A stretch of DNA of 64,000 nucleotides from a virus. Shown here piece after piece: positions 4,780-64,000 of this stretch; positions within the stretch are counted from its first letter, which is position 1, and the number at the start of each line of letters is the position of its first letter. The notes under the pieces were generated by a model. That model did not search any database. It saw only the letters and a list, made by a program, of their open reading frames with translations, and was not told the DNA's origin. Position numbers and translations under genes: made by a program. The DNA lies in IMG/VR virus record IMGVR_UViG_3300016471_001099, positions 1 through 64,000 of that record. One strand, 5' to 3'.

Positions 4780-4791
4780 GTCATTTTACTC

Positions 4792-42016: not shown

Positions 42017-45000
42017 ATGACGAACGAACAAGTTTCTCAGGAAGCCGACTACCTCTACAAGTCTTTGAACGCTCAGTTCAACATAGACGAAGCGCAGGGG
42101 ATAGTAGAGGCGTTCGTCGCAGGCATAGGAAACAAGGACTCCGTCGGAGACATATGTCTACCTGGTTGTTTCACGTCGTCGTTGAAGCGCAGAAAACCGA
42201 GAGTGGTTTGGGGTCACGACTGGAACTCCCCGATCGGAAAAGTTCTGGAAATTTACGAGGTGGGCCCCAACGATCCGCGTCTTCCGGCGAAGATGCGCAA
42301 GGCGGGGATAGGCGGGCTCTACGCGCGGGTTCAGTTCAACCTGAAGGCGGAAAAAGGCAAGGAAGCGTTCGCAAACGTGTCGTTCTTCGGAATGGAACAA
42401 GAGTGGTCCATAGGTTACAAAACTCTGGACGCCGTGTTCGATCCGGTTCAGACCGCAAACCTGCTGAAAGAAGTCGAGCTGTACGAAGTGTCGCCCGTTC
42501 TTCACGGCGCCAACCAATTGACGGGGACGATTTCCATAAAGGCCGATTCGGTTGAGGCCGAGACCAAGGAGAAGGCAGCCAGCAAGCCGGTTCTTCGCGA
42601 TCCGAAGGGCGGGTTGACGGCGGCTGGAAGAGCGCACTTCAAGCGAACCGAAGGCGCGAATCTCAAGCCAGGCGTGAAGGGTCCGGCCGACACTCCAGAA
42701 AAAATGCGAAGGAAGGGTTCGTTCCTGACTCGTTTCTTCACCAACCCCAGCGGTCCGATGAAGAAACCGAACGGGGAGCCGACGAGACTCGCCCTTTCCG
42801 CCGCGGCTTGGGGGGAGCCCGTTCCCAAGGACGCGTCCGACGCGGCGAAGTTGGCCGCCAAGGGAAGAAGATTGTTGGAGCGGTACGAAAATACCAAGAA
42901 AAAGAAAAAGGACGATTCCGACTCGGTTGAGAGCAAGAACCACGTCGCGGCGATATACGCGGCGATGACTTCTCCGCAAAACGAAGTTTTCGGTAGGGCT
43001 TCGCAGCTGACCAGGGCGCTGGCAACGAGATTCGGAGGGCCGGTCAGACTCGTCACGGCCGACAACGACATAGCCGTTTTCGAGATGGGCGCCGGCGACT
43101 CGACGGAGACGATGCGCGTCGCGTATCACTACGACGGAGACGAATTCATGTTCGGGACGGCACAAAAAGTCAAACCCGAAACCGTGTACATACCGGTCAA
43201 CGACTCCAACGCCGGGCAAATTCAAAACGGCGTGGCGATGGGCATATCGGCGGTCGAGGACAAGCCGGGATCGCATTGTTGTCCGGGTTGCGCGCACGGA
43301 GGCAACTGCGACGCCACCGTCGCGTTGGGGAACAATGAAAATCCGAAGATCGCGTTCCTGAAGCTCAAGTCGCTCGGCGATCAATTGGACTTCAAGGTCG
43401 TTCCGGTCGACGGAGGATTTGTCCTTCAGGGTTTTGGATTCCTCACCGAGGAAGCACAAAATTACGTCATCGGCAAAATAGAGAACGAACCGGAACAGAA
43501 GTTGCTGAATCCCGTCGGTAGTCTCGCCAGGAGGACGATAGGCGTTCCCAACGCCAGGGCATCGTTCAACATCGATACCAACCCATTCACGGCCAGAGAC
43601 GCGGACTTGGACAAATTGGTCCTCGAGGGAAACCCGCTCGTCAACCTGGGAAGAGGAATTCCCGACCCGACGCCTTTCGGGGCGCCCGACATCCCCGCCG
43701 TTGGGAAACCTGGCGTTCCCGAGCGTTACGTTCCTAACGTGGGCGGAAGAAGACCGATCGCTCCGAGAATGCCGGCGGTTCCCGAGCCTGACGAAATTCC
43801 GGAGCCGGCGAGGGAACCCAATAAGCAACCGAAGCCGGAAAGAACTCCGGTTACTCCGAGAAGGCCGAACAGAGAACCGGTCCCGGCTCCGGCTCCTCCG
43901 GAGAGAGAACCGGTTACCGAACCATCCGTGCCGCAACCCGAAAGAGAACCGGTCCCGGTTCCGAGAAGACCCGAAAGGGAGCCAACGAGGCCTACCGTAC
44001 CCGTTCCGCCGAGAAGACCCGTTCCGGTTGGAAGGGCGAGCAACGAGGACTTCGCAATAGCGGCGATGGGCGGAGGAAGGAGAACTCCGAAAGAACTGGC
44101 CGACGAGTTGGCCCAATTGGATTCGTCCGATCGTCCCAGCAGGCAAACGAGACAGCGCCGCGTCAGGGACGCCGGAATAGATCAAATGCGAAGGTTGGCG
44201 CTCCTTGACGACGCCGAAGCCGGAATGAGCGGACCCTACGGCGAAGGCAGAAAGTACGAAGAAATCGACAGTCTGATAGAGAGCCCCGCGCTCGACGGAG
44301 ATCGAACTCTGCACCTAGACCCAAGCACAGGAAAAATTTACGTCGCCGATCCGATCGAGAGAGAATACCTCTCGTCTAGGTTCGGAAACGATTATTTCCT
44401 GGAAAACGCCTACATGGACGAATGGGACTGGGATGAAATAGACAACGTCGGCTACGACGACATGGGCAACCTCGTAAGAAGGAGTCCGACCGGAGACGAA
44501 ATCATATTCAGCAGGGAACAATTTGGTTCGACCGGAACCGACGCCGGAATGGCGTCTCGCAAGACCTCCAGGAGCGAATCGGCCGATCTCGGAAGAAAGA
44601 TATGGCTGGAAAGAACGCACGACAGAATTTCGCTCGAGGAAGCCGGTAGGCGGAACGGGATAACGAGACAAGAGGCCAGGCAATTGGAGCTTCGTCACCA
44701 AAAATACTTGAGGGATCTCGGCGTCGATCATCCCAACAGAGTTCTTCGTTCGAAGGTGGACGACCCTTCGGTCGGGTTGACCGATGCGGAAAAGGATTTA
44801 TTGCGCAGGAGGCTCGACGGAGAATTGCTCCAGGAGGCCGCCGACCGTCTTCGTACGGACAGATACGCCGTCAGGCGAATGGAGCAACTTGCTCTCGCAA
44901 AAATGAGGAACGGAATGGCTGGGGACGAAACTTCGGCAGGTATGGCCGCTCGTTCCGGGGGCAGGGCGGTAGAAGCCGACCGCCCAAAAGCCCGACGGGC

Positions 45001-48000
45001 CAAAGGGCCCGTAAGCCGAAGAAAAAGAAACGCGGTTGATCCGACCTTTCTCCAAATACTCGATTCGCTGAAGGACAGCGGACCGACGAACATCACGAGC
45101 AGACAAAGAATACGGTTGGCGTCGATGATGCGCCTTCGCACGGCGATCCAAAACAAAATAAATTACATGTTGGCCACCGACGCAAGAAAGAGAAGATTGT
45201 CGAATCTCGGTCCGGAAATAGAGGACCTGAATAAAGGAATACGCGGACCATTCGAATCCCTGGCGGAGGCGGCCAGGCTCGCAACCGGTCGACCGTCGGA
45301 CCTCGTTTCTTCGGTCATGAAGACGGCCAACGGGGATCACGATCCGCTCGATCTGGACGGATCGATAAACGTTCAGGTGTTCGAAGCAATGCTGTCCACG
45401 GGTGGTGACGTGGCCGCCGTGGCGCGCACCATGGGAATGGACGAGGAAGTCGTAAAGATCAGGACAAATGCCCATGCCATGAGAGTTCTAGCTTCGTCGC
45501 GACCGGCGAAGATGAGAATTCACAGGCGAATCGAGGAGATGGGCGACAAACTTACTTCCAAAGAAAAAATCATGTTGCGAATGTGGATAAACGGAGCATC
45601 GAATCTAGACATCGCCGAAAAATTAGGTTCTGGAATGGACGAAAAATCCGTCATATCGTCCAGGTCGGCGGCCTTGAAAAAGATAGGAATAGACGTCGAT
45701 TCACCCGAACTGACCAGCAAGATAGTCAGCGGAAGAATTTTCTACGACGAGCACGGTTTGTTCTTCGGCCTCACCGACGAAGCCGGAAGAACTACGTACA
45801 ACAGAATCGGCGACGGTCCGTCGGCGGGAATGGCGAAAAGATCGACGAGCGTCGTCGAGGCGGATTTCGGCGACGGAAGAAGGGAATACGCGGTATCCAG
45901 GGTCGTAGCCAGGGACAGGTCCTCGGGAAACGAAGAGTCGGTCATGCTGATGCCATTGAGGGGCGACGACGAAACGACCGTTTCCGCCTTGGTTGGCAAG
46001 GCGTTGCTCGGCGACGACTCGCGAGGATTCAATCTCGAATTCCCCGCGACTTTGACGAAGTCCGGCGGCCGAATAGTCGCCGTTTCCGACGGAAGAGGCA
46101 AGGCGGTTCCGTATTACGGGGAAAGAGCGTTCGATCCGGGCGAGCCGGTGGTGATGGACGGTCCGTTGCGTTCCGCCAGGGCGAGGGCCAGAAAAATATC
46201 GGCGCTAAGGGAGAACGATACCGCTTCTCGAATAAAAACAGGTCAAGACGTGATCGGATCGGAGGCGAGATATTCAAATCTCGTCAAAGCCATGGACCGC
46301 TTGGTTTCCACCGGTGACTGGATAGGCGGGGATCTTGGCGTAACAGGAAGGGTTCCCGACGCCGACACGATGCTCAGGTACGGAATAGACGCCGACGTTG
46401 ACGGAAGTCCGATCGTTCCGTCCAACTCCAGCAGGGAGCAATTCGTGCTTCGCCAGGCCGAGTGGTTCCTGGAGAGGAATCCGAACGCCACCGCCGAAGA
46501 ACTCGATTCTTTCGTCGAGCAAGCGAACGAGGCAAGAATCAATCAAATAAGCAGGAAGATCGATTTGGCCGGAAAGGAACTTGCGAGAGTCACCCACGCG
46601 AGGGACTCGATGGAGGCGAGAAGGGCGCAAAACGTCGTGGATCTCGAAACCTTGGATCCCGAGATTGCGAGAGCACTTTCCGCGGAAACGGCCTTCATTT
46701 CCGGCTTGTCGGGAACGGAAATGGATTCCTCCGGGATTTCGCAAGGGGCGGACGGCTTCGTTTACGCGGTCCACAAAGGACCGGACAGACTCGCAGGAGG
46801 AGTACTCGATCCTTCTCGTTCCGTCGGTAGGGCCAGGAATGCGATCGACGTCGCCGGTCAGGGGGATACGAGGGGAGCCAACAGGATATACGTCGACCGT
46901 TTCGTCCAGTCCGCCAACGCCGAGTCGGAGATGGCGAAATTAGCCGACGATCTTTTGGCGTCGGTTTCAAGAGGGGACCGATCGATATCGGTCGCTCCGG
47001 CGATTCGAGCATCTCTAGCTTCGTATTCGCCGCTGATGGCGAGAGTGATGAACGGAGAAGGATACTTCAATTTGGAGAATTTCGACGAGGCAAGAAGATC
47101 CGCGATCGCCCTCGAAATAGGGAAATTCGCGTCGTTGCGGAAAGAACGATCCGAACGCTACGGAAAAATAATGGAGTCGTTGCGCAAGCACGGCGGGAAG
47201 AACATGGACCAGATTCTTTCGGCCGAGGCGGATCCCATATCCGCCCTGCTCTCCACGAATTTTTACGGTAGGTACGCCGACGACGACCTTCCCGAGGACG
47301 TCGTCGCGTTCAAACCGGGTTTCGTGGACAATTTGACTCGTCGTTGGGACCCGCTCGACGAGGAGATGTTGCGACGCTGGGACTCGACCGGATCCCTCAG
47401 GGGTGGCGCATTTTTGACCGTCGGCAGGGAGGATTCCGAAATAGTGAGGGGCGGTCTTCTCGGGCCGACTTCCGAGGCCCAGATAGTCGCCCCGCTCAAG
47501 CCGCTGATAGGTGTTTCCACACCGGTTTCCGTCCTGAGCGACGACAGCGAATCTCGCGCGCTCGTGTCGGCTCTCGGGCCGGCGATAGTTGCGAGAGCCA
47601 TAAAAATGCACAAGCGCGACGGTTTTGTGGACGTTGAAACCGTGCTGACCGACCCCGACTTGGCTCCGTCAGGATTCTCGTACGCCGAAACAGAAGCGGA
47701 GGCCGGAATGGCCGCGTTCGAGCCGCGAAGACCCATACTCGACGAGCGCGGAAGACTCGACCCGGTGCTCACTCGCGACGAGGCGATAGCCGACGACAGG
47801 GACGAAAGGGCAAGCGAAGGAGGCCAGATAGGTCGTCTTCTCGTTCCCCAATCTTCTTCCGTTTTCGTCGAGGCTCCGCCGAACGACCTGACGCCGGAAA
47901 CGAGAAGGGCTCAGTGGGCGGTCGGGTACACGGATTCGGTAGCAGACGTCATGCCGGAGCTCGGATATCCGCAAAGAATGGTTCACGTGGTTTCGCCGTC

Positions 48001-51000
48001 GGCATTGCCGCCCGACAACACCAAATTCCCGGTAGGCGACGAAGGGCAATTGCTTATGCTCGATCAGGAGCCGATAGATTTTCTCGCTCAGGCGTTGAAC
48101 GACGTAAACGGTTTGACGCGTGCCGAAAAAGAGGCGCAAAGAGAGGCGCTGGGCGACAGGGGATTCGATACGGAAGCCGACCCCGACTCGGACTTCACCC
48201 CGATCGAAAGATCACCCATTTATCTAGTAGTGGAAACCGTGAACGAACCCGACCTGCAGGGTCCGGGATACGACGGACGAAGAAGAACGAGAATCGTTCG
48301 CGTTCGCGAGATACCGAGAATGAGATTGTCCATGAGGGCCGACGACGATCAGCCCGGCGGAGGCCCGTATTGGAGAAGCCTGGATGCAGAGGCAGTGGCA
48401 CGGGGAGAGCCCGGGCGAACGACGACGGAAGGTCTCGGATTCTTGGATCTTTTGATAGACGTGGATCCAAATTGGGACGGAGATTTGGTTGACGACACGA
48501 GGGTCGTGCGCGTGAAGCCGGAAAACATCGTCGGCAGAATAGTTTCGGAATCGGAGCTCTGGAATACTTCCAGAATAACCAGGGAAATTTATTTAGGTGA
48601 AGGGGCGCGCACGGCTACGTACCGAAGACCGATCAGTCGTTTCGGGGACGAAACCGAGGCCGGCATGACGACCACGAAGAGAGGAATGGATCTCGTCGCA
48701 AGGACAAATAAATACCGCCCGAGCGAGGACGGAGAATACGTCATACCGGAATCCGTCATGCCCCGCAGGGATCAGGACAGGATGTTCGAGATCGCGCGGA
48801 CGATATCGTCCGGCGAATTCGATCCCCTTGACTGGAGGACCGAGGGAGAACTTGCGGCCCTACTGGAAAAAGCCGAAAACGTATTCCCGATCAAACCGAC
48901 TAGGCGCCATCCGCATCACGACGACGAGAGACTCGGTCGCCTGTACGACGTCACGAGAGCCAGGAACGGCTTCGTGTACCCGCTATACCGAAATAGGGAA
49001 GCGACGATGAACTTCAATTTCGGACAGCTTCTGAGTTTCGATCCGAATACTTCTGTCTACTCCTATTTGGATGGCGTGAATCCGGAGGTTTATTACTTCC
49101 CGGTGCGCATAGGCAGAACGACGTACGGCGCCGACGACTTTTCGTATCACCCTGCCTCGAGAATCGGATACGTCAGATTGATGCAAGACAAAAAAGGTCA
49201 TTACTACGAGATGAGGAAATGGAACCATCCGAACAATTCGGATCCGAATTCGTACGGATCGGCAATAAATTGGACCGACGACGGCGATTCTTTCAAACTA
49301 ATCGAGGAGGAAGGAAAATTCCATCTTTCTCGCAATAAAACCCTGGACGATCGTCTCGGTTTTCTGGGGGATTCGCCGCAAAAAATTCTTGCAGAAATAG
49401 CCAGGAGGGCCCCCACTTACCCCTCTGGGGAAACCTCATTCTGGGATTTGGCGATGAGGGAAACTCCATCCTTCGACGGAGACGGATATCCGACGAGACG
49501 CAGAACCGGTTACGCGGAACTTCCGGGGACTCCGACGGTGACCGAATCCACCGACATGAACGGCTTGCGACTGTTGATCGACGCCGCCAACAGGGACGGG
49601 GTCGGATTGAAACTTTCCGTCGTAGCGGGATTCAGGCCGGGAGAAAAATCGTATTCGAGGGTGACGGACAGCGAAGTGTTCATGCCCAGATTGGCCAGAG
49701 GAGAAATCGATCCGACGACGAGGGAATTCGTATCCGATCCGGACGGGATGGATCATTTGATCGGTTTTGATTCGTCCGGAACTGCGATTGCGCACGAACT
49801 GTCCGAAGTTTTGATGAATAACGAAACGAATCCCTCGTCGCCGAGGAGGTCCGTTGATCACTTCCCTGATTACGAAGACGGCGTAACGGAAGCCGGAATG
49901 TCGGCACCGATAGACAGATACGTCAGGACGACCGAGCCGACCAGGGACGACGAAGGAACTTCCGAGGGACGTCGCGAGGTTCAGATAGTCGATCTTCCGT
50001 CTACCCAATCGGCTAGGAACGGAGGAAATTACGACGACAGCCCCGCCTCGGTGATCGCGGCCGCCGTCGACAAAGTCAGGGCCATGGATTCGGACGCGGG
50101 AGCGGATTTCAACGACGAAAAACACGGACTTACTTTCTCGTACCCGAGCAGCATTAAGGGCACTACCGGGAAAAAGGAACTACGCAATAGAACCCTGATA
50201 AATCCGATAGTCGTTTACGGAGAGTACGACCCGGAGACGAACGAAACCTACATCCTCGCCACGGACGAGACCGGGGTTACGAGGCTCGTTCCGATGTCCA
50301 AAGTCGATTTGAAGGCGATGGTGGCCGGAGATCCGAACGCTGGCGACCATTCCGGAAATCCGGACGTTCAGGACGGAACCTATGCCACGTACGTCGTGGG
50401 CGAAGAAATCGTCGGCGGAAAAACGCAAACCAGAATATTCAATACCGAAAGAATGAAGCCCGTCCTAGGTTCTCCGAGGACGACCAGCGTCGTCGACGAC
50501 CAAGGTGCTCCGACGGGTCGGAGCGAAAGGATCGTTACGCAACCTCGCCCCACAACCACGGACGCGGAATCCGCACCGAGCATAGAAGCCAGCGATTCGG
50601 ACGATCCGTTCTTTTTGCAACACATGGAGCCACCGAGACCCCAGGCTTTCAACGCACAAACGACCATGCCAGTTGGGGATGGGGATGTGCAACTATTCCC
50701 AGGAACCGATAAGCCGACGGCATGGGAGGTGGCGAAAGGATTGGCGGCCGGTGATCCAAAGGCCATACTCGCTCGCAAGGCGGACGAAATGATGCTGTGG
50801 GACAAGATACGAAAAGGGATGCAAAAGTGGTTGAAACCGTGGGGTAAGCACGAATCAAAAATAATAAAGGACGAATCCGGTGCGCCAGTGATAAACCCGG
50901 CGAACGGATTGCCGTTTTATAGGAGCCCCTATAGAAAACCGTGGACTCCGTGGGGAAATCCGCTAGACGAAAACGGAAAAGAACTTTCCGATGGAATTCG

Positions 51001-54000
51001 TGGAGAATTGGACAAAATAAGTGGTTGGCGGGAATTCGGCGAGTGGCTGAAAACCAAGAAACTGGCTTTTTTCGACGTCGAGACGACCGGAATACCGAAC
51101 GGTTCGCTAGAAGCTGGACAAGCCCTGCAGGTCGCAGTGATAATGGTGGAAGACGGGAAGTTCGACAAGCCGAAACGACTCGAGATTTGGATCAATCCCG
51201 GTTCCACCCCGTTGGAACCGTGGGTTGTAAAACACATCAAGTACGACGGAAAAACCATACCCGACGCATTAAGAATGTTTCCGGAAAAATTCGAATCGCC
51301 CGAACAAGCAAAACAGAAAATAGCGGAATTCATAGGCCAAGACGCAGTCGTTTTGTCTCACAATTTTAGAAATTTTGACTCGCGAGTCTGGAGACAGCTG
51401 ATGGGGGATCATCCCACGCTGGGCTGGATTGACACCCTCGCCATAGCCAACTGGATGTTCGCCATAGATAACGAACGAGCAAAAAGCATAAACGCATTGG
51501 AACGCTCGAGCGGAAGATATTCAATGATGAATTGGTTTACGGGCTTGGTAACGATAGATCTTCCCGGGGGAAAGCGATGGGGCTCCAGGGGTAGGAAACC
51601 GGGAGTTCTGGATAGGATCGCCCGCAGAGCCACTGGGCCACTTACTTTCACCCCGGCCCTATCCAAAAAGAAAGCCGTTCCCCAGTGGTATCCAAAGACA
51701 TCTGGTTCGCAATCCAACGAAGCGTTGGCGAAATATTTCGGGATTCCGCAGGTCAAGGCACACGACGCAATGGAAGATGCATCGGTGAGTTTCCGTGCGT
51801 TGTTAGAAATTATCTCCCTCGGGGAAAAATGGGACTCGGCCAGTTTGATGTTTCGTCCGGAATGGGTCAAGTGGGTTCAGTACCAAACGGACGAACAGTA
51901 TGCGGCCGACGTTTCGACGTGGAGAAGGGCAAACGGAATAACCGACGGGCAACGGGAAACGTTGTTCGATTCTGGACCGAGCCAACAAGGGCCGACACCT
52001 CCGCCGGGACCGGGGTCTTCCGGCGGTGGCTCCAATCGGGGACCGTCCTCTGGCGGCGGAGCCGGCGACGACCAAGGTCCTCCGAACGATGGTTCGTGGT
52101 CCACCGGCGGAGATGATCCGGATCGTAGATTTTTGTATCAGACTCCGAGCGGGGTCAAGGTGTTCGAAAGTTACGGCGGTATATATTTCGAACTCACCTC
52201 GGTGTCCCCGTCGGACGGCGCCGAGCAATCCGTATTGGTCGCAAAAACGATATCCGATGCAAGATTGCAAGGATACGGATTCCAATTCCACTACGGAACG
52301 AAATCAAACGGAGAGCCGGCTCGCTACAGGCTCCTCTCGTTGGAGGTTGTTCCGAGGAGCGACGTTACCGAATCTCAGGCGAGACAAATGGGAGTATCCG
52401 GTTGGGAACTTCACGGAATAGACGCAGCCGACGGAAAACTAAAACGTTTTGAATTTTCGCTTTTGAATACGGGTGAGGCCGAAGGCCCAAAGACCAGCAA
52501 TATGACCGAATTGCCGCTTTTCGTTTACGGGGATCCGATTTCTCGCACTTACGGCGTGGTGGGAGACGGTGCGCCAAGAACTCCGCTTCAGTATGCAGAT
52601 TATGCGAGAAGGGTCGCCTACAACAGGGGCAGATCCGACGACGGCCCGTCGGCCGGAATGTCGGGTCTGACCAACAGGGACGGGGTAACCAATTCGACCG
52701 ATTATTGGACGGCCAACGAAAACGACTACGAAATGGTCAGAATGACCGATGCACAACTCGTTTCCAGACTGTCTTCGGACAGGACGAGGTTCGAAAACCT
52801 ATTCCACGCCGGGCCGGGCGAAAACGTTTCGGCATCGAAAGTTCTCGACTCGGTGGCGGCGGCCAACAGGATAATGAGACTAAGGTCGAATGATTCGGTA
52901 GACAACAACGGTTTTACTGTCGCCCTGTCTCGTTCGGGATACAAACTTTCTGGTTCTTTCTCTCCTCCGCCGGGGGTCATGGACGGAAGTTACGTTCTTC
53001 CGTCTTCGTACGTTGCGACGAGGTCGGAGATGGCGAAAAACGCAAAACTTTCCATGATGCTCGATTTTTCTATCGCAAACGGAGGACTAAGAAACGCTGT
53101 AGAAAGGGCGAGCAGATTGTCGAGAATTCCGGCAAGAGAATTGATCGGAAGGATCGCCGCGCACGATTACCCAACCTACGCCGATGAGACCTACTACAGA
53201 AAATTCCGCAACGCATCCGAATTAATATCCGGAGGGACGGAAACCCCGTCTTCGCTCGGACTACTGATAGATCCATCGTCGGATCCGAGAACGGCGGCGA
53301 TACTGACGGATAGAGCGGCGATGATTCTCGGCGTAAATACCCTCGGATATACGGGTGTTTTTGCGAGGGGCGGAAGAAATTATTCGCAAATGGAAACGTC
53401 GGACCTGATGAACGAATTCAACGAATCCGTTTCCGATCTTTTCTCGTTCGATCATTCGGGTAGGTACGAAACGCCGGAATTCAGAATAAAGGCGGATGCC
53501 ACCAGGGATTCGCTGAGAAAAATTTCCGACGAAATGAGAAACAGATATTTCTCCTCGCTTCCCGAGGCGGCGCCGTCGTCTTCGGTTTCGGACGAGGCAG
53601 AAGCGGGCATGAGTTCCGGAAACTCTCCTTTCGGGGAAGCGGACGGACTGCCGATACTCAGCGGTTCAAAGTGGTTGGACGCCCGCCTCCACGCCATATA
53701 CGGGGACGTCGAATACGAGAAACAAGCGGCCAAATTCGGCGACAGATTCAGGACGTTGCCTCAAAGAAACTGGGACTCCCCGACCGACGACGACCTAGTT
53801 GATGTCTACCACTACGCCACGATGCTCCATCACGATGCCCTAATAGAGGAGTTGACCAGAAGAAACGAGAGGTCGGATATGGTCGACTTTGTGTCCAGCG
53901 ACCCGGTGGACAACGGATCTATTGCCGTCATGGACAAAGTGTCGGATTTTTCCGGAGCGCCGAAACAACGCATCGGCGAATTGATTTTGCGCGGCAGGGA

Positions 54001-55753
54001 CGTCGCCGTAACCAGACGCTTGGCGGCCATGGACCCGTTCGCCAGGGCGGAGGAAATGGACGCAATCAGGCGCAGGAAAGCGTTCGCAAGATTGATAGAG
54101 GACAAAAAGCGGGAACTCGGGGACGATTTTGCCGCGTGGCTAGCCGCCCAATCCATAAAAGGCGAATCCGAGACTAGAACCGGAAGGCGACGCTCGGAAT
54201 TCGAGGATTTGATCGGTTCGTCCGGTGGAGGATTCTTCGACGAAACTCCAGGCGAAGCCATGGACGGTCTTTCCGACCATATGGGAATGGAAAGGGACGA
54301 ATCGGACGGCGACGACACGGAGGCGGGAATGGCGGGCAGGCGCCCCTTCATACGTCAGCGCTACGACGTGAAACCCGTGGACGGGGGATTCGTGATAATA
54401 GACCTAGACAATAGGAACGCCGTTTCTAGCAGGGTTTTCAAAGATAAGCGCGAGGCGCTACGCGGTGCGGCCAAGATGGACAGAGGGGACAGAAGTTTTG
54501 ATCCGTTCGCAAGTCCGCAACCGACGCCGCCACCAAGAACGATATCCGAAGCGATCGCATCGGACCCGGCCGCGCCAAAACCAAAAGATTCGAGCGAAGC
54601 CCAACCGAGTTTGTTCGACGACAACGGGGACCCAAACGTCGGAATGTCCTCCGGCTCCTTGCCGAACAGGCTCAGATTTTCTCCGAGGAAGAGAACCGAG
54701 GAGCGAATAAGCAGGGACAACGTAAGGACCGCAATGACGGAGTACGAGACTGGAAGGGCATCCATCCCGTATCCGTCACCGGAAGACGTGCCGGTATCGA
54801 GACTAATGGGCGGATACGCCGCCGCGGATTCTTCGCTTCACACAGTCATCGGACGATTGGAGCAAATAGCATCGGCGCCCGACGACGACGCTCCGGGCGC
54901 AGAAACGAGGGACGAAATAACTCGTCTCATCTCGAACATGGAAAAATTGCAAAAACGCAGAAACTATTTCTACAACCAGCTGAGAGACCGACTGGATAGC
55001 TCGGATCCCGCATACCAGACGCTGGAGGGGTGGCACGCGGAAAGAGCCGGATTGGACAGGGAATCCACGACTCGTTTCGGCTCCGGAAATTTGCCCGGTT
55101 ACGTTTTGCCTTCGGGGTTGGGGAGATACGGTCTATCCGATTCGCAGATATCACCGAAATACTCGAACCAGTCCGGCGACGCCGCGTTCCTCGAGAACAT
55201 GATCAGCGATGCGATAGGCGAGTATTCGTCCGATTTCTCCGTTCCCAAGGAGGAAGAGTATTACATCCGCTCGGAAATGAATCGAGTGTTGCGTTCCATC
55301 CAGAACGACGTGAGCGAAATGTCCAGGAAAAACAGGGATTCCGTAATGAAATTCGGACAGAGATCGGCGAGAATCGGAGCTCAGACGATAGTTGCGGCGT
55401 CTCGAATTTCCACCGGAGAAGACGTGAGGAAAGCGATACTTTCGGCCGGATTGAAGAAAATGATGCAGGACGGAGGAGCAAGATTAGGCCTCGCCTACTT
55501 GATAAACGCAGTGGACGTGGGACTAATAACTCAGTCCGACGCCAAAACGATGCTGAGGAATGCCAAGTCTTCGTCGGACGTCGTCGCCGAAAGGATCAGC
55601 AAAGCTCAGAGCATGACGGCAAGGAGTCAGATGTCCAGAATGATTTCCGACATGTCGGGGACATCCAGTGGCAGAAAGTCTTCCGAAAGGGGAATTTCCG
55701 ATAAGCGTCTGTCAATGATTACCGAAACGCTTTCTTCGGAGCTAGTCAAGTAA
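42017..55753 (+). CDS. 4578-aa multi-module protein with N-terminal HK97-type prohead protease
   Basis: Uninterrupted ORF. DSVGD...WGHDWNSPIG...WSIGY...LYEVSPV..GAN at the N-terminus, followed by many unrelated modules. Confidence 0.88.
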   Translation: MTNEQVSQEADYLYKSLNAQFNIDEAQGIVEAFVAGIGNKDSVGDICLPGCFTSSLKRRKPRVVWGHDWNSPIGKVLEIYEVGPNDPRLPAKMRKAGIGGLYARVQFNLKAEKGKEAFANVSFFGMEQEWSIGYKTLDAVFDPVQTANLLKEVELYEVSPVLHGANQLTGTISIKADSVEAETKEKAASKPVLRDPKGGLTAAGRAHFKRTEGANLKPGVKGPADTPEKMRRKGSFLTRFFTNPSGPMKKPNGEPTRLALSAAAWGEPVPKDASDAAKLAAKGRRLLERYENTKKKKKDDSDSVESKNHVAAIYAAMTSPQNEVFGRASQLTRALATRFGGPVRLVTADNDIAVFEMGAGDSTETMRVAYHYDGDEFMFGTAQKVKPETVYIPVNDSNAGQIQNGVAMGISAVEDKPGSHCCPGCAHGGNCDATVALGNNENPKIAFLKLKSLGDQLDFKVVPVDGGFVLQGFGFLTEEAQNYVIGKIENEPEQKLLNPVGSLARRTIGVPNARASFNIDTNPFTARDADLDKLVLEGNPLVNLGRGIPDPTPFGAPDIPAVGKPGVPERYVPNVGGRRPIAPRMPAVPEPDEIPEPAREPNKQPKPERTPVTPRRPNREPVPAPAPPEREPVTEPSVPQPEREPVPVPRRPEREPTRPTVPVPPRRPVPVGRASNEDFAIAAMGGGRRTPKELADELAQLDSSDRPSRQTRQRRVRDAGIDQMRRLALLDDAEAGMSGPYGEGRKYEEIDSLIESPALDGDRTLHLDPSTGKIYVADPIEREYLSSRFGNDYFLENAYMDEWDWDEIDNVGYDDMGNLVRRSPTGDEIIFSREQFGSTGTDAGMASRKTSRSESADLGRKIWLERTHDRISLEEAGRRNGITRQEARQLELRHQKYLRDLGVDHPNRVLRSKVDDPSVGLTDAEKDLLRRRLDGELLQEAADRLRTDRYAVRRMEQLALAKMRNGMAGDETSAGMAARSGGRAVEADRPKARRAKGPVSRRKRNAVDPTFLQILDSLKDSGPTNITSRQRIRLASMMRLRTAIQNKINYMLATDARKRRLSNLGPEIEDLNKGIRGPFESLAEAARLATGRPSDLVSSVMKTANGDHDPLDLDGSINVQVFEAMLSTGGDVAAVARTMGMDEEVVKIRTNAHAMRVLASSRPAKMRIHRRIEEMGDKLTSKEKIMLRMWINGASNLDIAEKLGSGMDEKSVISSRSAALKKIGIDVDSPELTSKIVSGRIFYDEHGLFFGLTDEAGRTTYNRIGDGPSAGMAKRSTSVVEADFGDGRREYAVSRVVARDRSSGNEESVMLMPLRGDDETTVSALVGKALLGDDSRGFNLEFPATLTKSGGRIVAVSDGRGKAVPYYGERAFDPGEPVVMDGPLRSARARARKISALRENDTASRIKTGQDVIGSEARYSNLVKAMDRLVSTGDWIGGDLGVTGRVPDADTMLRYGIDADVDGSPIVPSNSSREQFVLRQAEWFLERNPNATAEELDSFVEQANEARINQISRKIDLAGKELARVTHARDSMEARRAQNVVDLETLDPEIARALSAETAFISGLSGTEMDSSGISQGADGFVYAVHKGPDRLAGGVLDPSRSVGRARNAIDVAGQGDTRGANRIYVDRFVQSANAESEMAKLADDLLASVSRGDRSISVAPAIRASLASYSPLMARVMNGEGYFNLENFDEARRSAIALEIGKFASLRKERSERYGKIMESLRKHGGKNMDQILSAEADPISALLSTNFYGRYADDDLPEDVVAFKPGFVDNLTRRWDPLDEEMLRRWDSTGSLRGGAFLTVGREDSEIVRGGLLGPTSEAQIVAPLKPLIGVSTPVSVLSDDSESRALVSALGPAIVARAIKMHKRDGFVDVETVLTDPDLAPSGFSYAETEAEAGMAAFEPRRPILDERGRLDPVLTRDEAIADDRDERASEGGQIGRLLVPQSSSVFVEAPPNDLTPETRRAQWAVGYTDSVADVMPELGYPQRMVHVVSPSALPPDNTKFPVGDEGQLLMLDQEPIDFLAQALNDVNGLTRAEKEAQREALGDRGFDTEADPDSDFTPIERSPIYLVVETVNEPDLQGPGYDGRRRTRIVRVREIPRMRLSMRADDDQPGGGPYWRSLDAEAVARGEPGRTTTEGLGFLDLLIDVDPNWDGDLVDDTRVVRVKPENIVGRIVSESELWNTSRITREIYLGEGARTATYRRPISRFGDETEAGMTTTKRGMDLVARTNKYRPSEDGEYVIPESVMPRRDQDRMFEIARTISSGEFDPLDWRTEGELAALLEKAENVFPIKPTRRHPHHDDERLGRLYDVTRARNGFVYPLYRNREATMNFNFGQLLSFDPNTSVYSYLDGVNPEVYYFPVRIGRTTYGADDFSYHPASRIGYVRLMQDKKGHYYEMRKWNHPNNSDPNSYGSAINWTDDGDSFKLIEEEGKFHLSRNKTLDDRLGFLGDSPQKILAEIARRAPTYPSGETSFWDLAMRETPSFDGDGYPTRRRTGYAELPGTPTVTESTDMNGLRLLIDAANRDGVGLKLSVVAGFRPGEKSYSRVTDSEVFMPRLARGEIDPTTREFVSDPDGMDHLIGFDSSGTAIAHELSEVLMNNETNPSSPRRSVDHFPDYEDGVTEAGMSAPIDRYVRTTEPTRDDEGTSEGRREVQIVDLPSTQSARNGGNYDDSPASVIAAAVDKVRAMDSDAGADFNDEKHGLTFSYPSSIKGTTGKKELRNRTLINPIVVYGEYDPETNETYILATDETGVTRLVPMSKVDLKAMVAGDPNAGDHSGNPDVQDGTYATYVVGEEIVGGKTQTRIFNTERMKPVLGSPRTTSVVDDQGAPTGRSERIVTQPRPTTTDAESAPSIEASDSDDPFFLQHMEPPRPQAFNAQTTMPVGDGDVQLFPGTDKPTAWEVAKGLAAGDPKAILARKADEMMLWDKIRKGMQKWLKPWGKHESKIIKDESGAPVINPANGLPFYRSPYRKPWTPWGNPLDENGKELSDGIRGELDKISGWREFGEWLKTKKLAFFDVETTGIPNGSLEAGQALQVAVIMVEDGKFDKPKRLEIWINPGSTPLEPWVVKHIKYDGKTIPDALRMFPEKFESPEQAKQKIAEFIGQDAVVLSHNFRNFDSRVWRQLMGDHPTLGWIDTLAIANWMFAIDNERAKSINALERSSGRYSMMNWFTGLVTIDLPGGKRWGSRGRKPGVLDRIARRATGPLTFTPALSKKKAVPQWYPKTSGSQSNEALAKYFGIPQVKAHDAMEDASVSFRALLEIISLGEKWDSASLMFRPEWVKWVQYQTDEQYAADVSTWRRANGITDGQRETLFDSGPSQQGPTPPPGPGSSGGGSNRGPSSGGGAGDDQGPPNDGSWSTGGDDPDRRFLYQTPSGVKVFESYGGIYFELTSVSPSDGAEQSVLVAKTISDARLQGYGFQFHYGTKSNGEPARYRLLSLEVVPRSDVTESQARQMGVSGWELHGIDAADGKLKRFEFSLLNTGEAEGPKTSNMTELPLFVYGDPISRTYGVVGDGAPRTPLQYADYARRVAYNRGRSDDGPSAGMSGLTNRDGVTNSTDYWTANENDYEMVRMTDAQLVSRLSSDRTRFENLFHAGPGENVSASKVLDSVAAANRIMRLRSNDSVDNNGFTVALSRSGYKLSGSFSPPPGVMDGSYVLPSSYVATRSEMAKNAKLSMMLDFSIANGGLRNAVERASRLSRIPARELIGRIAAHDYPTYADETYYRKFRNASELISGGTETPSSLGLLIDPSSDPRTAAILTDRAAMILGVNTLGYTGVFARGGRNYSQMETSDLMNEFNESVSDLFSFDHSGRYETPEFRIKADATRDSLRKISDEMRNRYFSSLPEAAPSSSVSDEAEAGMSSGNSPFGEADGLPILSGSKWLDARLHAIYGDVEYEKQAAKFGDRFRTLPQRNWDSPTDDDLVDVYHYATMLHHDALIEELTRRNERSDMVDFVSSDPVDNGSIAVMDKVSDFSGAPKQRIGELILRGRDVAVTRRLAAMDPFARAEEMDAIRRRKAFARLIEDKKRELGDDFAAWLAAQSIKGESETRTGRRRSEFEDLIGSSGGGFFDETPGEAMDGLSDHMGMERDESDGDDTEAGMAGRRPFIRQRYDVKPVDGGFVIIDLDNRNAVSSRVFKDKREALRGAAKMDRGDRSFDPFASPQPTPPPRTISEAIASDPAAPKPKDSSEAQPSLFDDNGDPNVGMSSGSLPNRLRFSPRKRTEERISRDNVRTAMTEYETGRASIPYPSPEDVPVSRLMGGYAAADSSLHTVIGRLEQIASAPDDDAPGAETRDEITRLISNMEKLQKRRNYFYNQLRDRLDSSDPAYQTLEGWHAERAGLDRESTTRFGSGNLPGYVLPSGLGRYGLSDSQISPKYSNQSGDAAFLENMISDAIGEYSSDFSVPKEEEYYIRSEMNRVLRSIQNDVSEMSRKNRDSVMKFGQRSARIGAQTIVAASRISTGEDVRKAILSAGLKKMMQDGGARLGLAYLINAVDVGLITQSDAKTMLRNAKSSSDVVAERISKAQSMTARSQMSRMISDMSGTSSGRKSSERGISDKRLSMITETLSSELVK

Positions 55754-55804
55754 TTATTGTTGTTGCATTTGAATACGAACAATTCTTCTACAATTGGAGA
55801 GATT

Positions 55805-57400: not shown

Positions 57401-57414
57401 AGGTCAATCGATAA

Positions 57415-57618
57415 ATGAAACCTAGTTCTGGAGGTGGGTACACCCGTGGCAACCGTGTTATGGGTTATGATAAACCTGCACAAAATAACGGAGCTAAATT
57501 CAAATATCACTGCATAGCAACTGGCGAAAAACGCCAGTTTCCGTGCGGAAGTTGCGGCAACCACAAGGCTTGCCTCACCTCGACAATGCAATACAAGGAG
57601 CGAAAACATGGAACCTGA
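57415..57618 (+). CDS. Small Cys-containing protein
   Basis: 67 aa. C-x9-C-x2-C-x5-C; overlaps the next start. Confidence 0.55.
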   Translation: MKPSSGGGYTRGNRVMGYDKPAQNNGAKFKYHCIATGEKRQFPCGSCGNHKACLTSTMQYKERKHGT

Positions 57619-59398: not shown

Positions 59399-59410
59399 GG
59401 AAGAATCGAG

Positions 59411-62400
59411 GTGACGCGCCTCGAACGACACCTCAGAAAAAGTCCGGGCCAAAAATCCCTAGGACCCAGGATCGGCGACGATGGTCGCGACATGAATCCG
59501 TTCACGGCGCGCGACGCCGACGCGGATCTCGTGGTGCTCGAGGACATACCGACGGTCAACCTCGGAAGAGGCGTGCCGGATCCGACTCCGGGCGGGGTGT
59601 CCGAGCCTTTTTTCTCGGCAACCGACAGAAATTTTGCCGTCGCCGCGATGTCCGGAGGCAAAAAAAATACCCAGCGGCTTGACCCCATCGACGCTGGCAA
59701 TCCAAACGGTTACTTCCCGATGCAATACGGGCCCATGTGGAAGAACACGAACTTTACGGCCCTGAACGTGGCGCCTCGGTCGAGGCGGAACGTGGCCCCG
59801 GCGTCAATAAACGGATATCTTCACGCCGAATGGACGGAGGGATACTGGGACGCCGTAAAGGACGAAACGGGCGTGTGGAACGTCCCGCCACCGCCGGAAA
59901 TGGAAGTGGAGAGGGCGATTTACGACGCACTAAAACGAGAGACCGTCGAGGTCGGAGGATACGGAGTTCCGTTCCCCAAATATCCCAAACCGGAAAATTA
60001 CGGCGAGTACGTCGGCGCGACGGGGAATAGGCGAAGATATCTCCGTCCGTCGCTTTCGTTTCCGATGAAAAAAACGACGGGGGAAAAAGTTTCGTGGAGG
60101 GACGGAGATCCGCTGTATCACGGAACTCCGACGGGTCTCCTACCCAAAATACTCAAAGAGGGTTTGGTGGGCGATTCGGATCGCTGGGTTTGGTTGGCCA
60201 CCACCCCTTCCGCATGGAACGACGAGTTCCCGATTTACGGGGATTTTCGCAAGGTAAACGCCAAGGGAATGTCGATGCTCAGGATTTCTCCGACCGACGA
60301 AATGAACGAGGCAATGGGAAAGATAGCAGGGTTGATGAACGACGGAGTCGAGCCAGGCCCCGGACTCGGCATGGTCGTGGTCGACGAAAACGGAGAATCT
60401 GTGTCGGCGAGGGATTTCGGAGCCGGCAAGGGGTACGCTTCGGCCAGCAATTCGGGCACGGCCATATTCAAATCCGTCGTCGTACCTCCCGAAAACATAG
60501 AGGTCCTAAATCAACGCGGTCAATGGATACCGATAGCCAAGGCGGATTTTTCCGACATAATTTTTGATTCTCCGAAAAACGAAGAAGTAGAAGCCGGCAT
60601 GTCGTTCGACAAGCGAAGCATCATGAGAATGGTGAACGACATAACCTCGAGAAAAAAAGACAAAGAAGAGCGCGAGGAACCGCGTAGGGAAACCCCTACA
60701 CAAGAACCGACCCAGATCGTCCTCGGCTTGCCGCGGCAACCGCCACAAATAGGTTATTCGGACTCGTACGGCGGCGACGACGTGATCAAACGCGAGCAGA
60801 GAATGCAGAGGATAGAGCACGAGGGGATGGCCGGGTCGGGAATGTGGAGGGAAATTCACTCCGATCACTACGACTGGTGGGCGTATCCGATAGACCGCGG
60901 TAGCGCCGCCTACGGAGAAACTTTCAACGTCGCTGGAGAACCTCTGGAAAGATTGCGCAACGATCCCGAATTTCTCAGCAGCTTGGCCAGGGAAATAGAG
61001 ATACAGGCCCTCGCTCTCGGGTGGTCTTTGCGAGAAGGAAAATTCCTGGACGAACTTGACTGGGAAAAAGGACAGGATTGGAGAAAGGCGTATCCGACCC
61101 GTTTTTGGAAAATGACCAGATCGGCCCAAATATTCGGACTAGAGGACGAATTCGAGTCCTTGTTGGTTCTTCAGCAATCCCTGGAGGACGCCGGAATAAA
61201 TTTCAATCACTCCACTTATTGGGCGAATCCCGGAACGGTTGACGACGTTCCACCGATAGACAGCGCTTATCAAAAGAGGACGGATACGGCGCGCTTCCCG
61301 GCAAGCGATTCGGCGTCGTGGACGGATCCGTTCTGGCAGCCTTCGCCGAGAAATGAAAGCGTCTCGCCTTCGGCGTCCCCAACCGAAACCGACGAAGAAA
61401 AGTTGATTTACGACGCGTACGACAACTTCCAGGAAAATTTTGTTTTCCCGACACTTTCCGACGCCGAAGAATTGGCCGATCTGTTGTCCGAGCCGGACGA
61501 CGTAATCGAGTTCGGTTACCCATACGAAAAAATACCCAAGGAAGACAGGCAGACGATCGCCGACGACATATATTTCGCAATATCGCTTCTCATGGACGGA
61601 GTGTTCCCCGACGAGGAAGAGACAGACAGAATCGAGTCGGCCGCGCAAATGCGAAAATACGCCGACGAAGCCGAGGGCCTGTATCCAGACGACGGCGACA
61701 TTTTGTACTCCCTCGCCGACGTGCTCGAGGACCCGGAATTACTGAACGACGAGGCAATCGTGTCCGAGGATACCGAAGCGGGAATGGCAAGGCGGATGAG
61801 GGCGCTCGACGAGGGAATAAGTTCGGACGACTTGTCCCTTGACGATCCGGAAATACAAAATCTCATAGAGTCGGAATCCGACGCGGCAACCGAGGATTTC
61901 CTGCTTGGCAGATCGCTTTCCAGGATCATATATCCTTCTTTGGATTTTCCGAACAAAATACCAAAAGGAACACCACGACCGGTTCGTCAATTTTCCTTGA
62001 ATCAGGAGATACCGGAAGAAATTTTGGCGGAATTCGCCCTTTTGTGGGGCGACGACGTGTCGTTCGTAGATATAACCGAGAGGATGAACCTTTCTCCCGA
62101 AGACGCAGTTTCGATTCAAACCGAACTTTTTAGATCAGGACGAATAGCCAGCAGAACGAGATCTCGGGAGTCGCGCGCCCCCGTTCGTTTGTCGCCGGAA
62201 AACGAAGACGCTTTCATTCAGTGGCACAGGGAGGGGGCGAGCAGGGAGTTGCTGGAATCAATTTTCGAATTAACCCCCCGTCAATATGCGAGCATTGTCG
62301 GGGACCTGAGAAACCGGAGGTTGATAGCGAGCCCAATTGCCAAACAGTACTTTTCCGATGACGACGTAAGACGATTCAACTCCATACGAGAAAGGGCGCT

Positions 62401-64000
62401 AAAGGAGGGCGGCCAACTGACCGGTCCGACGGCCACGATAAAACAAACGATAATGCGAGAAATGAATCTTGACGAAACTCAATATATTTTGCTGAAGAGA
62501 AAAGCGCAATATGCCAAACAAAATCCCGAAAGGGTCGCCGAGTCGATTGACAACTCGCTGTCGGAATCAGCCGATTCGCCCGAAACAACGTCGCCGTCGG
62601 CGAACAATTTCTTCAACGAAAGAGACATTAGGCGATTCGCCGAAATGTACAACGACGAAGAATTTTCGGGAACGATAAGACGATCCATGAATATGTCCGA
62701 GGGCGATTACCGCCGACTTTACATAGCCGCCAAGCGTCGCGGTCTAATAACCCCGAGACCGCTGAAAGGTACGTTGCGCGGGCCGACAAAAGCAACAATC
62801 GAAGATTTTGAACGTTTCGTTCAGCTTTATAACGACGGGAACAAGAGATCCGAAATAATGAATGAAATGGGAATTTCGGCGAGCAAATACGGAACTCTAT
62901 ACGCCTCGGCCAGAAAATCAGGCCGCGTAGAAAGTCCGCTGGTTACGAGAACCAACATAACGCAGGAGCAATTGGATGCGTTCGTTTCGGAATGGAACGC
63001 CGGCTCCTCGTTGCAGTACATTGTCAAGCAACAAAAATTGACCTTGGAAAAAGCTAAAAGTATTTTCAGGAAAGCCCGTTCAATGGGTTTGGTACGACCG
63101 AGGAAAAGGGGTCGCAAGAGGCAACCAAGATTCGGCACGGAAGAATTATTTACGCAAGCCGTGGATATGTTTTCTCGCTTGTACGCGGAGGGGCAATCGA
63201 GACTCGAAATAAGGAAACGAATGCGACTTTCCAAATCCCAGTACGCGGACGTCTACAAAGAGGCCAAGCGAAGGAATTTGATAACCCCCAGGCTCCCGGG
63301 GCGCCCCCGACGCAACAACATTGGTTCCGTCGCGCAACCGCAAGAAACGTCCGACGACACCGAAGCCGGCATGTCCTCGGCGTTGGTGAAACGAGCCACC
63401 GACGAAGACGCTCAAATCGATTTGCTGTATTCCGTTCCCGCCGTATCGGGGAGATTGAGAATGTTGGGAGTCGACGGATCTCCGATCGCCATCGGAAGAA
63501 ACAGCCTCATGAAACCTTATTTTTTGGCTCCGCACGTAGACGTAAACAAAATGGATCCATCCGATCCGGTCATGCAACTTTTGTCCCCGGCTTTGAAACG
63601 AGCCGGACTCGGTTCGTATCCCGTGGACGGGCACGTCGTTCCGAAAATACAGGGACCGGTAGTGAGGGATTTCGCGGACAGATTCGTCGGGCCGATGGCC
63701 GTGGCAAACGCCGTGTCCGGAACTTTCCCGTCCGCCGACGAAATGCTCACGATTTACGCCATCAACGCGCTGATCAGGGCGAGGGCGGAGTTCCTGTCCG
63801 ATTCGACGATGACTGCCGATCAGGTGAATACGGCGATATTGAACGGCGTACAAGTCGGTCGCAGGCTCGACGGCGGCGACGACATGGGTGGTTCGTTGTG
63901 GAAACCCGGTCGCGATTCGGCGAGAAGTTCCGATCTGACGACAAATACGAGACCCGACGGCGGCGACTACGAACCGCGATTCTCGGGGACCATAGATCCG
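59411..64000 (+). CDS. Second giant multi-module protein (>1500 aa, runs off the window end)
   Basis: Not in the track because it has no stop. Manual translation from the GTG at 59411 is open to the edge. Shares the leader motif and EAGM boundaries with 42017..55753. Confidence 0.85.
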   Translation, partial: MTRLERHLRKSPGQKSLGPRIGDDGRDMNPFTARDADADLVVLEDIPTVNLGRGVPDPTPGGVSEPFFSATDRNFAVAAMSGGKKNTQRLDPIDAGNPNGYFPMQYGPMWKNTNFTALNVAPRSRRNVAPASINGYLHAEWTEGYWDAVKDETGVWNVPPPPEMEVERAIYDALKRETVEVGGYGVPFPKYPKPENYGEYVGATGNRRRYLRPSLSFPMKKTTGEKVSWRDGDPLYHGTPTGLLPKILKEGLVGDSDRWVWLATTPSAWNDEFPIYGDFRKVNAKGMSMLRISPTDEMNEAMGKIAGLMNDGVEPGPGLGMVVVDENGESVSARDFGAGKGYASASNSGTAIFKSVVVPPENIEVLNQRGQWIPIAKADFSDIIFDSPKNEEVEAGMSFDKRSIMRMVNDITSRKKDKEEREEPRRETPTQEPTQIVLGLPRQPPQIGYSDSYGGDDVIKREQRMQRIEHEGMAGSGMWREIHSDHYDWWAYPIDRGSAAYGETFNVAGEPLERLRNDPEFLSSLAREIEIQALALGWSLREGKFLDELDWEKGQDWRKAYPTRFWKMTRSAQIFGLEDEFESLLVLQQSLEDAGINFNHSTYWANPGTVDDVPPIDSAYQKRTDTARFPASDSASWTDPFWQPSPRNESVSPSASPTETDEEKLIYDAYDNFQENFVFPTLSDAEELADLLSEPDDVIEFGYPYEKIPKEDRQTIADDIYFAISLLMDGVFPDEEETDRIESAAQMRKYADEAEGLYPDDGDILYSLADVLEDPELLNDEAIVSEDTEAGMARRMRALDEGISSDDLSLDDPEIQNLIESESDAATEDFLLGRSLSRIIYPSLDFPNKIPKGTPRPVRQFSLNQEIPEEILAEFALLWGDDVSFVDITERMNLSPEDAVSIQTELFRSGRIASRTRSRESRAPVRLSPENEDAFIQWHREGASRELLESIFELTPRQYASIVGDLRNRRLIASPIAKQYFSDDDVRRFNSIRERALKEGGQLTGPTATIKQTIMREMNLDETQYILLKRKAQYAKQNPERVAESIDNSLSESADSPETTSPSANNFFNERDIRRFAEMYNDEEFSGTIRRSMNMSEGDYRRLYIAAKRRGLITPRPLKGTLRGPTKATIEDFERFVQLYNDGNKRSEIMNEMGISASKYGTLYASARKSGRVESPLVTRTNITQEQLDAFVSEWNAGSSLQYIVKQQKLTLEKAKSIFRKARSMGLVRPRKRGRKRQPRFGTEELFTQAVDMFSRLYAEGQSRLEIRKRMRLSKSQYADVYKEAKRRNLITPRLPGRPRRNNIGSVAQPQETSDDTEAGMSSALVKRATDEDAQIDLLYSVPAVSGRLRMLGVDGSPIAIGRNSLMKPYFLAPHVDVNKMDPSDPVMQLLSPALKRAGLGSYPVDGHVVPKIQGPVVRDFADRFVGPMAVANAVSGTFPSADEMLTIYAINALIRARAEFLSDSTMTADQVNTAILNGVQVGRRLDGGDDMGGSLWKPGRDSARSSDLTTNTRPDGGDYEPRFSGTIDP

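Follow-up and report, generated by a model that had tools for sequence, protein, structure and literature searches.

Why should giant proteins encoded in a phage head module be punctuated, domain after domain, by one short motif built around a methionine? The question is raised by a stretch of 64,000 nucleotides (the window) that forms bases 1-64000 of the 117,419-bp IMG/VR virus record IMGVR_UViG_3300016471_001099. The record is estimated to be 79% complete; a close relative with terminal repeats measures 173,962 bp, and the source is an uncultured phage with a full genome of ∼150 to 175 kb. An earlier note on this DNA had located two giant open reading frames (ORFs) in the head locus, A at 42017-55753 and B from 59411, and had proposed that their recurrent Ala-Gly-Met (AGM) motifs mark points at which the proteins are cut into separate effectors. 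Both ORFs lie where the note placed them. That the motif is a real sequence feature, non-random, placed in linkers, conserved in position, and varying in concert between lineages, is well supported, and we consider it probable that the sites are cleavage signals.

ORFs A and B contain 13 AGM sites and three variants, with Met codons at 44066 (AAM), 54644 (VGM), and 59648 (AAM), and every coordinate first given for them is correct (Table 1). The residue after Met is Ser at six of the AGM sites, Ala at six, and Thr at one, and Glu precedes Ala at 9 of the 13, also as described. The claimed enrichment is strong: composition predicts 1.19 AGM tripeptides in the two ORFs, 2000 residue shuffles never gave more than 7, and AGM is their most over-represented tripeptide. 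Three other AGM tripeptides occur in long frames of the window and, as the note had said of background occurrences, none has the acidic and small-residue context. The motif extends beyond these two ORFs. Downstream of the window it continues in ORFs C (four sites), D (one, AAM), F (two), and G (ten AGM and one AAM), and context sites across A, B, C, D, F, and G number 31. A position-specific scoring matrix (PSSM) built from these 31 sites was scanned against all six-frame ORFs of the 117-kb record (120,447 amino acids [aa]). Every training site scored at least 10.9, and the single further match scoring at least 8 was DEPMAAM-T in a tape-measure-like protein. The signal as first written, [ESD]AGM[SAT], was too narrow; it is better described as an acidic residue or Gly, then Pro, Thr, or Ser, any residue, a small residue, any residue, and Met, usually followed by a small residue. 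In this genome the consensus is D at −6, T, P, or A at −4, E, S, or D at −3, A at −2, G at −1, Met, and then S, A, G, or T, often with a basic residue next.

The note had placed the sites between modules, and four independent checks agree in putting them in disordered linkers and not inside folded domains. The hydrophobic fraction from −8 to +6, Met apart, is ∼0 to 0.2, versus a background of 0.28. No Pfam envelope spans a context site (protease, DUF6321, GerE, RNase_T, wHTH, NUDIX, and Zeta_toxin), and the lone AGM that lacks the context, at residue 4795 of ORF G, falls within the NUDIX domain. An AlphaFold2 (AF2) model of ORF A residues 690-1300, built from a nine-sequence alignment with a mean predicted local distance difference test (pLDDT) value of 66, has four long segments with pLDDT below 50 (model residues 1-60, 148-160, 281-317, and 577-611). 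These hold exactly all four sites of the region (model positions 48, 156, 287, and 583), with folded modules between them. Finally, when the giants were aligned to relatives by BLAST, 43% of the internal alignment ends fell no more than 30 aa from a site, compared to 13.7% for random positions (maximum of 27% in 1000 trials). As an example, the homology between ORF A and the giant ORF of the complete relative G001 ends at residue 980 here and at residue 925 there, adjoining sites at 976 and 922.

At least 587 relatives of the protease domain of ORF A are found in IMG/VR, and only a close clade of them has giant ORFs. The note had named sites inside folded domains and loss of the sites in orthologs as results that would speak against its proposal, and neither was seen; within the giant-ORF clade the sites are kept at orthologous positions. 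The flavor of the motif changes from lineage to lineage: TEAGM in this genome and P0003, DGP[ES]AGM in P0004, GDAEAGM in P0005 and P0006, DGPTASM in P0009, [DS][GS]P[VI]G[AS]M in G001 and L014, GDSGAM in G002 and P0010, and P[ST]GSM in one further contig; in P0011, DTGRM (8 times) is mixed with GAM (5 times) and a single GSM. Throughout, Met is close to invariant, A or G occupies position −2, and even Arg can occur at position −1; in place of the Glu before AG, other sites and lineages have S, D, T, V, or P. The motif in its Pro context is restricted to three head-module ORFs in G001, where a looser form occurs in the tape measure. Such genome-wide covariation over dozens of unlinked sites indicates a shared trans-acting recognizer, which is most plausibly a protease.

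A second element accompanies the motif. ORFs A, B, D, F, and G, but not C, share a leader box of ∼35 aa with 11 invariant positions (ARDADLD..VLEG.P..N.GRG.PDPTP), and the first small-small-Met site follows 15 to 130 aa downstream of it. IMG/VR contains 50 box loci, spread over ∼25 contigs that have at most six each. In distant relatives the protease ORF has just 530 to 890 aa, and box, motif, and giants are all missing, which indicates that box, linker code, and giant cargo form one clade-specific system. The absence of the box from those short protease ORFs also led us to reject the idea that it is the ancestral C terminus of the protease ORF. By analogy with capsid-targeting propeptides, the leader box is a candidate targeting tag that would recruit the giants to the assembling head.

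The nearest candidate for the enzyme is encoded in cis, at the N terminus of ORF A and adjoining the portal-MuF gene. Residues 24-181 match the Peptidase_S78 family (PF04586) with 40.1 bits against a cutoff of 21 and a PHROG head maturation protease at 1.7e-26; H67 (in GHD) and S131 (in WSIGY), which we take to be the S78 catalytic residues, are invariant in 24 relatives. In eight related phages, with or without giants, the capsid protein carries an invariant EFK[SA]L.GG[RK]NGANM[PI]SPF at residue ∼113 to 125. The delta domain likely ends at its NGANM (∼120), which is a candidate for the canonical protease site and fits the small-x-Met pattern loosely. In the reading that we favor, the leader box would bring A, B, D, F, and G to the head as it assembles, cutting beside the near-invariant Met would divide the chains into ∼40 domain-sized products, the S78 protease would make each cut after Met (P1 = Met, P1′ small), and the products would be delivered to the host. 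Because cutting before packaging would strip the modules of their leader, it makes more sense for the cuts to fall inside the head or after ejection. This full statement, in which a proteolytic linker code makes polyproteins of six head-module ORFs and S78 is the enzyme, is held tentatively; for us the case is close to balanced, with a slight lean toward doubt. When the S78 domain and a 41-aa linker peptide were modeled as a complex, the score was 0.02, which was counted neither way. The parallel that the note drew with poxvirus I7L and African swine fever virus (ASFV) processing stands as a conceptual analogy and does not extend to the type of enzyme: Pfam scans of all giant ORFs (E ≤0.01; smaller genes were outside the scan) found no clan CE cysteine protease. 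The record has no match to the ClpP family either.

The tape-measure match widens the picture, which the note had confined to the head: the head giants are marked, and so is a tail protein. The N terminus of the tape measure carries DEP[ML]AAM in three lineages of AGM or ASM flavor; where the flavor is G[AS]M the site is SGGAM, and where it is GDSGAM, NSGAM is found twice. A lineage-matched site is thus found in five lineages, and it is absent from five motif-less relatives. Separately, a C-terminal stretch of this protein may, judged by eye, resemble a cell wall hydrolase motif.

Several observations weigh against the assignment to S78 or against purely protein-level selection. The S78 core is ∼90 to 95% identical across lineages of differing flavor and ∼70 to 80% identical in relatives that lack giants, box, and motif, so changes in the protease do not track changes in the motif. 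The candidate capsid site has Pro or Ile after Met and not a small residue, and a second capsid candidate, SAM at residue 162 (ORF from 102453), was rejected as a motif site because relatives have SAL or TAL there. The tape measure is a tail protein, which a prohead-confined protease should not meet, and its site is missing in motif-less relatives that retain the same S78 protease, having been gained only in the cargo-bearing clade. The tape-measure site favors cutting at a point where one enzyme would meet both head cargo and tail contents, for example after ejection. The codons at the sites add a further point. Those for Ala and Gly do vary, as the note had observed, but two of them are somewhat over-used: Ala at −2 is GCC at 17 of 27 sites (41% usage) and Gly at −1 is GGA at 16 of 24 (40% usage). 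The bias is mild, but protein-level selection alone leaves it unexplained, and some DNA-level constraint or homogenization is possible.

The same code could be served by a zincin-like HExxH module carried as cargo in ORF D or C, cutting between the two small residues and Met (P1′ = Met). Thermolysin-like zincins select mainly a hydrophobic P1′ residue. Cutting could then take place after ejection into the next host, with every ejected protein, the tape measure included, as a substrate. DHELNH lies at aa 692 of ORF C and HE[MF]GH at aa 463 of ORF D, in this genome and in G001 (where, as a separate observation, the C and D homologs are fused in one 1759-aa ORF; HExxH loci L083, L092, and L152). 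The D motif recurs in G002 and in six of six aligned D orthologs (26 to 43% identity), in which H334, E335, H338, and E368 are invariant, placing a Glu ∼30 residues past HExxH. The C and D modules are candidate metallopeptidases, and zincin peptidases have been proposed as processors of polyvalent proteins (Iyer et al., PMC5512222). D evolves fast and fits the changing flavors better than the near-frozen S78 core, and the tape-measure site is restricted to the clade that has HExxH modules. The D module occurs in three motif lineages and is missing from four relatives without the motif, of which two have a completeness of 92% or more, but this co-occurrence is partly circular because D is itself box-bearing cargo. 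A rough estimate from typical His and Glu frequencies, not a computed value, puts the chance occurrences of HExxH in 17,000 aa at ∼0.5. A zincin fold did not emerge: the record has no Pfam MPTase-PolyVal (PF18818) match, zincin matches in single members were at noise level, ORF D has no PDB sequence match, a Foldseek search of PDB with its mediocre AF2 model (pLDDT of 60.6) returned nothing at E ≤0.001, and the ESM Atlas gave no usable match. We regard an HExxH enzyme as rather unlikely, yet as a serious rival to S78.

The remaining explanations dispense with cutting. The motif might be a non-proteolytic linker, either a docking motif for packaging or a chaperone or a relic or hot spot of module exchange homogenized by recombination. 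The coincidence of homology breakpoints with sites is what such exchange would leave, and genome-uniform flavors and the over-use of GCC and GGA fit copying and pasting of linkers; the codon excess suggests that some copying of linkers may add to the uniform flavor. Synonymous positions nevertheless differ widely between sites, with no extended nucleotide identity. A recombination relic would leave unexplained the near-invariant Met, the small flanks over seven flavors, and the matching tape-measure site, and docking motifs rarely come in 10 or more copies per chain at every domain boundary, so we judge this explanation improbable. Still less probable, to the point of being nearly dismissed, is that the Met codons are internal translation starts from which modules are also made singly. 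An invariant Met with a small residue next does resemble a normal N terminus, and the anti-Shine-Dalgarno value is −4.25 kcal/mol for motif Met codons versus −3.03 kcal/mol for other internal ones (P = 0.018), but real gene starts lie mostly at −4 to −10, though that of ORF A is at +0.9. GAA outnumbers GAG two to one for Glu at −3, so GAGG is not selected. At orthologous sites Met is replaced through CTG/CTT or GTA/GTT codons while the upstream context is kept, and frames open for up to 5244 codons favor read-through translation. Upstream of Met, selection acts on amino acids, in seven flavors, which makes internal initiation unlikely. Two other mechanisms were set aside, 2A-like ribosome skipping because it is eukaryotic and autoproteolysis driven by Ser or Thr because A or G follows Met at about half of the sites.

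Cleavage at the linkers thus remains the reading that we prefer. A more ambitious version of it, which is speculative and in its entirety rather doubtful, would join the box and the Met-linker into one system of address and release that has two parts and can be tuned by lineage. The box would load arbitrary cargo modules as beads-on-a-string polyproteins, and the linkers would make every ejected protein, the tape measure included, a target of a phage protease delivered with them, which might act only after injection. Each particle would deliver ∼40 separate proteins, and new effectors would be added by linker recombination.

All of the giants sit between the portal-MuF gene and the major capsid gene, and A, B, C, D, F, and G total ∼17,000 aa; since the capsid gene comes only after them, the head module is inflated by ∼60 kb. 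ORF E (697 aa), also downstream of the window, is not among the motif-bearing giants. RNase_T (a DnaQ-like exonuclease), GerE helix-turn-helix (HTH), winged HTH (wHTH), NUDIX, and Zeta_toxin domains were recognized by Pfam in A, B, and G, the RNase_T, GerE, and wHTH scores being near or just under curated cutoffs. Most modules of the giant ORFs have no match, PHROG scans of the giants yielded almost nothing further, and ORFs A, B, C, and D have no PDB match by sequence. ORF G residues 4108-5244 (98764-102177) hold a NUDIX hydrolase (∼4707-4837) and a zeta-toxin-like kinase (∼5010-5181) in separate motif-bounded segments. In ORF A, residues 846-1272 (44552-45832) form helical modules with a GerE/LuxR HTH match just under the Pfam cutoff. 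Homologs of these modules carry Sigma70_r4, and Foldseek with the 690-1300 model gave weak sigma-factor-like hits only (E >0.1); they may be virion-borne transcription factors. ORF A module 1273-1898 has a whole-module paralog in ORF C, 2250-2815.

Two further genes lie between A and B. An Arg/Gln-rich 547-aa ORF (55757-57400, plus strand) has no family match and no similar-sized counterpart at the same place in G001. It contains tandem repeats (56537-56632 and 56685-57102), ∼2.8 copies of a 150-nucleotide (50-aa) unit and a 48-nucleotide repeat, both of which contain RRQQGM-RPADTS; this x-G-M-R may be a looser cutting signal that would yield small basic peptides. It is followed by a very acidic 596-aa protein (57608-59398, plus strand) with a Cys-rich N terminus, a scaffold-like composition, and no family match. 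Its C-terminal element, P-I-x-x-x-SDL[RK]NAI...AK.HI..RAKALG, is present in two copies, and one GGM-A occurs near residue 543. The minus strand of the window encodes the large terminase (38147-39457), a ParB-like gene, a PAPS-reductase-like gene, and tail genes, which include the 1716-aa tape-measure-like ORF (20892-26042) and a Baseplate_J protein. The ParB_N-domain and PAPS_reduct-domain genes adjoin at 32374-34433 (minus strand), with the terminase on one side and the tail genes on the other.

Table 1. Motif sites, leader boxes, and head-module genes. Sites are named by ORF and Met residue; positions beyond 64000 are those of the full record.
Feature	Coordinates	Strand	Remarks
Motif in tape-measure-like ORF 20892-26042, residue 64, DEPMAAM-T	25848..25871	-	Sole PSSM match outside head-module giants
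Portal protein fused to MuF-like domain	39713..41935	+	Opens head module; Pfam Phage_portal 3.6e-50, Phage_Mu_F 6.7e-10; PHROG portal match
Giant ORF A, 4578 aa	42017..55753	+	S78 protease, DUF6321, leader box, Pro-rich spacer, ∼12 linker-bounded modules
Peptidase_S78 (HK97-type prohead serine protease) domain, N terminus of A	42086..42559	+	Pfam PF04586 5.4e-10, above cutoff
DUF6321 domain, A residues 194-265	42596..42811	+	Pfam 6.6e-28
Leader box, A	43574..43699	+	
First site after box, A Met 684, FAIAAM-G	44054..44071	+	
Linker site A Met 737, DAEAGM-S	44213..44230	+	AF2 pLDDT <50
Linker site A Met 845, GTDAGM-A	44537..44554	+	In AF2 low-pLDDT segment
Linker site A Met 976, ETSAGM-A	44930..44947	+	Orthologous in all aligned relatives; homology to complete relative G001 breaks here
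Linker site A Met 1272, GPSAGM-A	45818..45835	+	In AF2 low-pLDDT segment
Linker site A Met 1898, EAEAGM-A	47696..47713	+	
Linker site A Met 2217, ETEAGM-T	48653..48670	+	
Linker site A Met 2628, VTEAGM-S	49886..49903	+	
Linker site A Met 3548, GPSAGM-SGLTNRD	52646..52663	+	Orthologs have GSM, GAM, or AGM there
Linker site A Met 3865, EAEAGM-S	53597..53614	+	
Linker site A Met 4105, DTEAGM-A	54317..54334	+	Highest PSSM score
Variant site A Met 4210, DPNVGM-S	54632..54649	+	L006 ortholog DPTAGM-S
Giant ORF B, 1866 aa	59411..64000	+	Part in window; ends at 65011 in full record
Leader box, B	59489..59614	+	
First site after box, B Met 80, FAVAAM-S	59636..59653	+	
Linker site B Met 397, EVEAGM-S	60587..60604	+	Next module's homology to G001 ORF begins ∼20 aa on
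Linker site B Met 792, DTEAGM-A	61772..61789	+	
Linker site B Met 1321, DTEAGM-S	63359..63376	+	
ORF C, 2815 aa	65238-73685		Outside window
ORF D, 915 aa	73682-76429		Outside window
ORF F, 1848 aa	79462-85008		Outside window
ORF G, 5244 aa	86443-102177		Outside window
HK97-type major capsid gene	102453-103844		Outside window

Parts of this arrangement have precedents. T4-like and phiKZ-like prohead proteases cut head and ejection proteins at short motifs, with Ser preferred at P1′ (PMC10052503). As proposed here, a short motif, cut after L/I-x-E by T4 gp21 and after A-x-E in the phiKZ-like gp175/gp245 system, recurs in many head-internal proteins, the head protease is phage encoded, and N-terminal propeptides serve as targeting sequences, as does the box in our proposal; the prohead protease codes of T4 and of phiKZ/SPN3US are among the systems nearest in concept. 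None of this extends to a tape measure, whose inclusion is a further difference here. Those enzymes are of the S77 type and require an invariant Glu at P1, whereas here Glu at −3 is dispensable and Met is fixed, and their substrates are mostly single proteins that shed a propeptide, whereas here chains of 2,000 to 5,000 aa carry the code at every domain boundary. HK97 gp4 and other Peptidase_S78 proteins resemble the ORF A domain in the above-cutoff family profile match and the invariant His and Ser positions, but the usual S78 protease has ∼200 to 560 aa and trims the capsid delta domain, while this one is fused to ∼4,400 aa of cargo. Poxvirus I7L (cutting AG-X after Gly), ASFV pS273R (GG-X, likewise), and RNA virus polyproteins share with our proposal one protease, a short small-residue motif, and many products; the first two have a fixed Ala-Gly or Gly-Gly where Met is fixed here, and, with host and virus lineage unrelated, the likeness is one of analogy only.

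Also among the nearest in concept are the polyvalent proteins, for which processing by embedded peptidases and delivery with the DNA were predicted (Iyer, Burroughs, Anand, de Souza, and Aravind 2017, PMC5512222). They too are huge chains in which unrelated domains, enzymatic and DNA binding, are combined, and they show linkage to MuF, portal, and head genes. A cleavage motif, a shared leader box, and a lineage-specific boundary code are not described in that work; the main peptidase there, a zincin MPTase that is common but not obligatory, has no match in this record, and the assemblin-like peptidases are C-terminal, unlike the N-terminal S78 here. The processing of polyvalent proteins is therefore already predicted, while a cleavage grammar for them is not previously known: no earlier description of such a boundary code was found in literature whose coverage left out most subscription journals.

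If the motif is a cutting code, this polyprotein system would be unusually explicit for a DNA phage, with ∼30 explicit cut sites per genome and orderly variation over ∼25 related metagenomic contigs. The lineages would then offer a natural specificity series for a capsid protease or for a new metallopeptidase, and ∼40 unknown proteins would be delimited for expression and screening, for example for anti-defense functions. The combination of box and linker would suggest a portable tag-plus-linker design by which phage heads might be loaded with cargo. A new question is why a tail tape-measure protein shares the code of head cargo. A real code would provide a directly testable rule behind the packaging and release of a very large virion-borne protein arsenal by a DNA phage.

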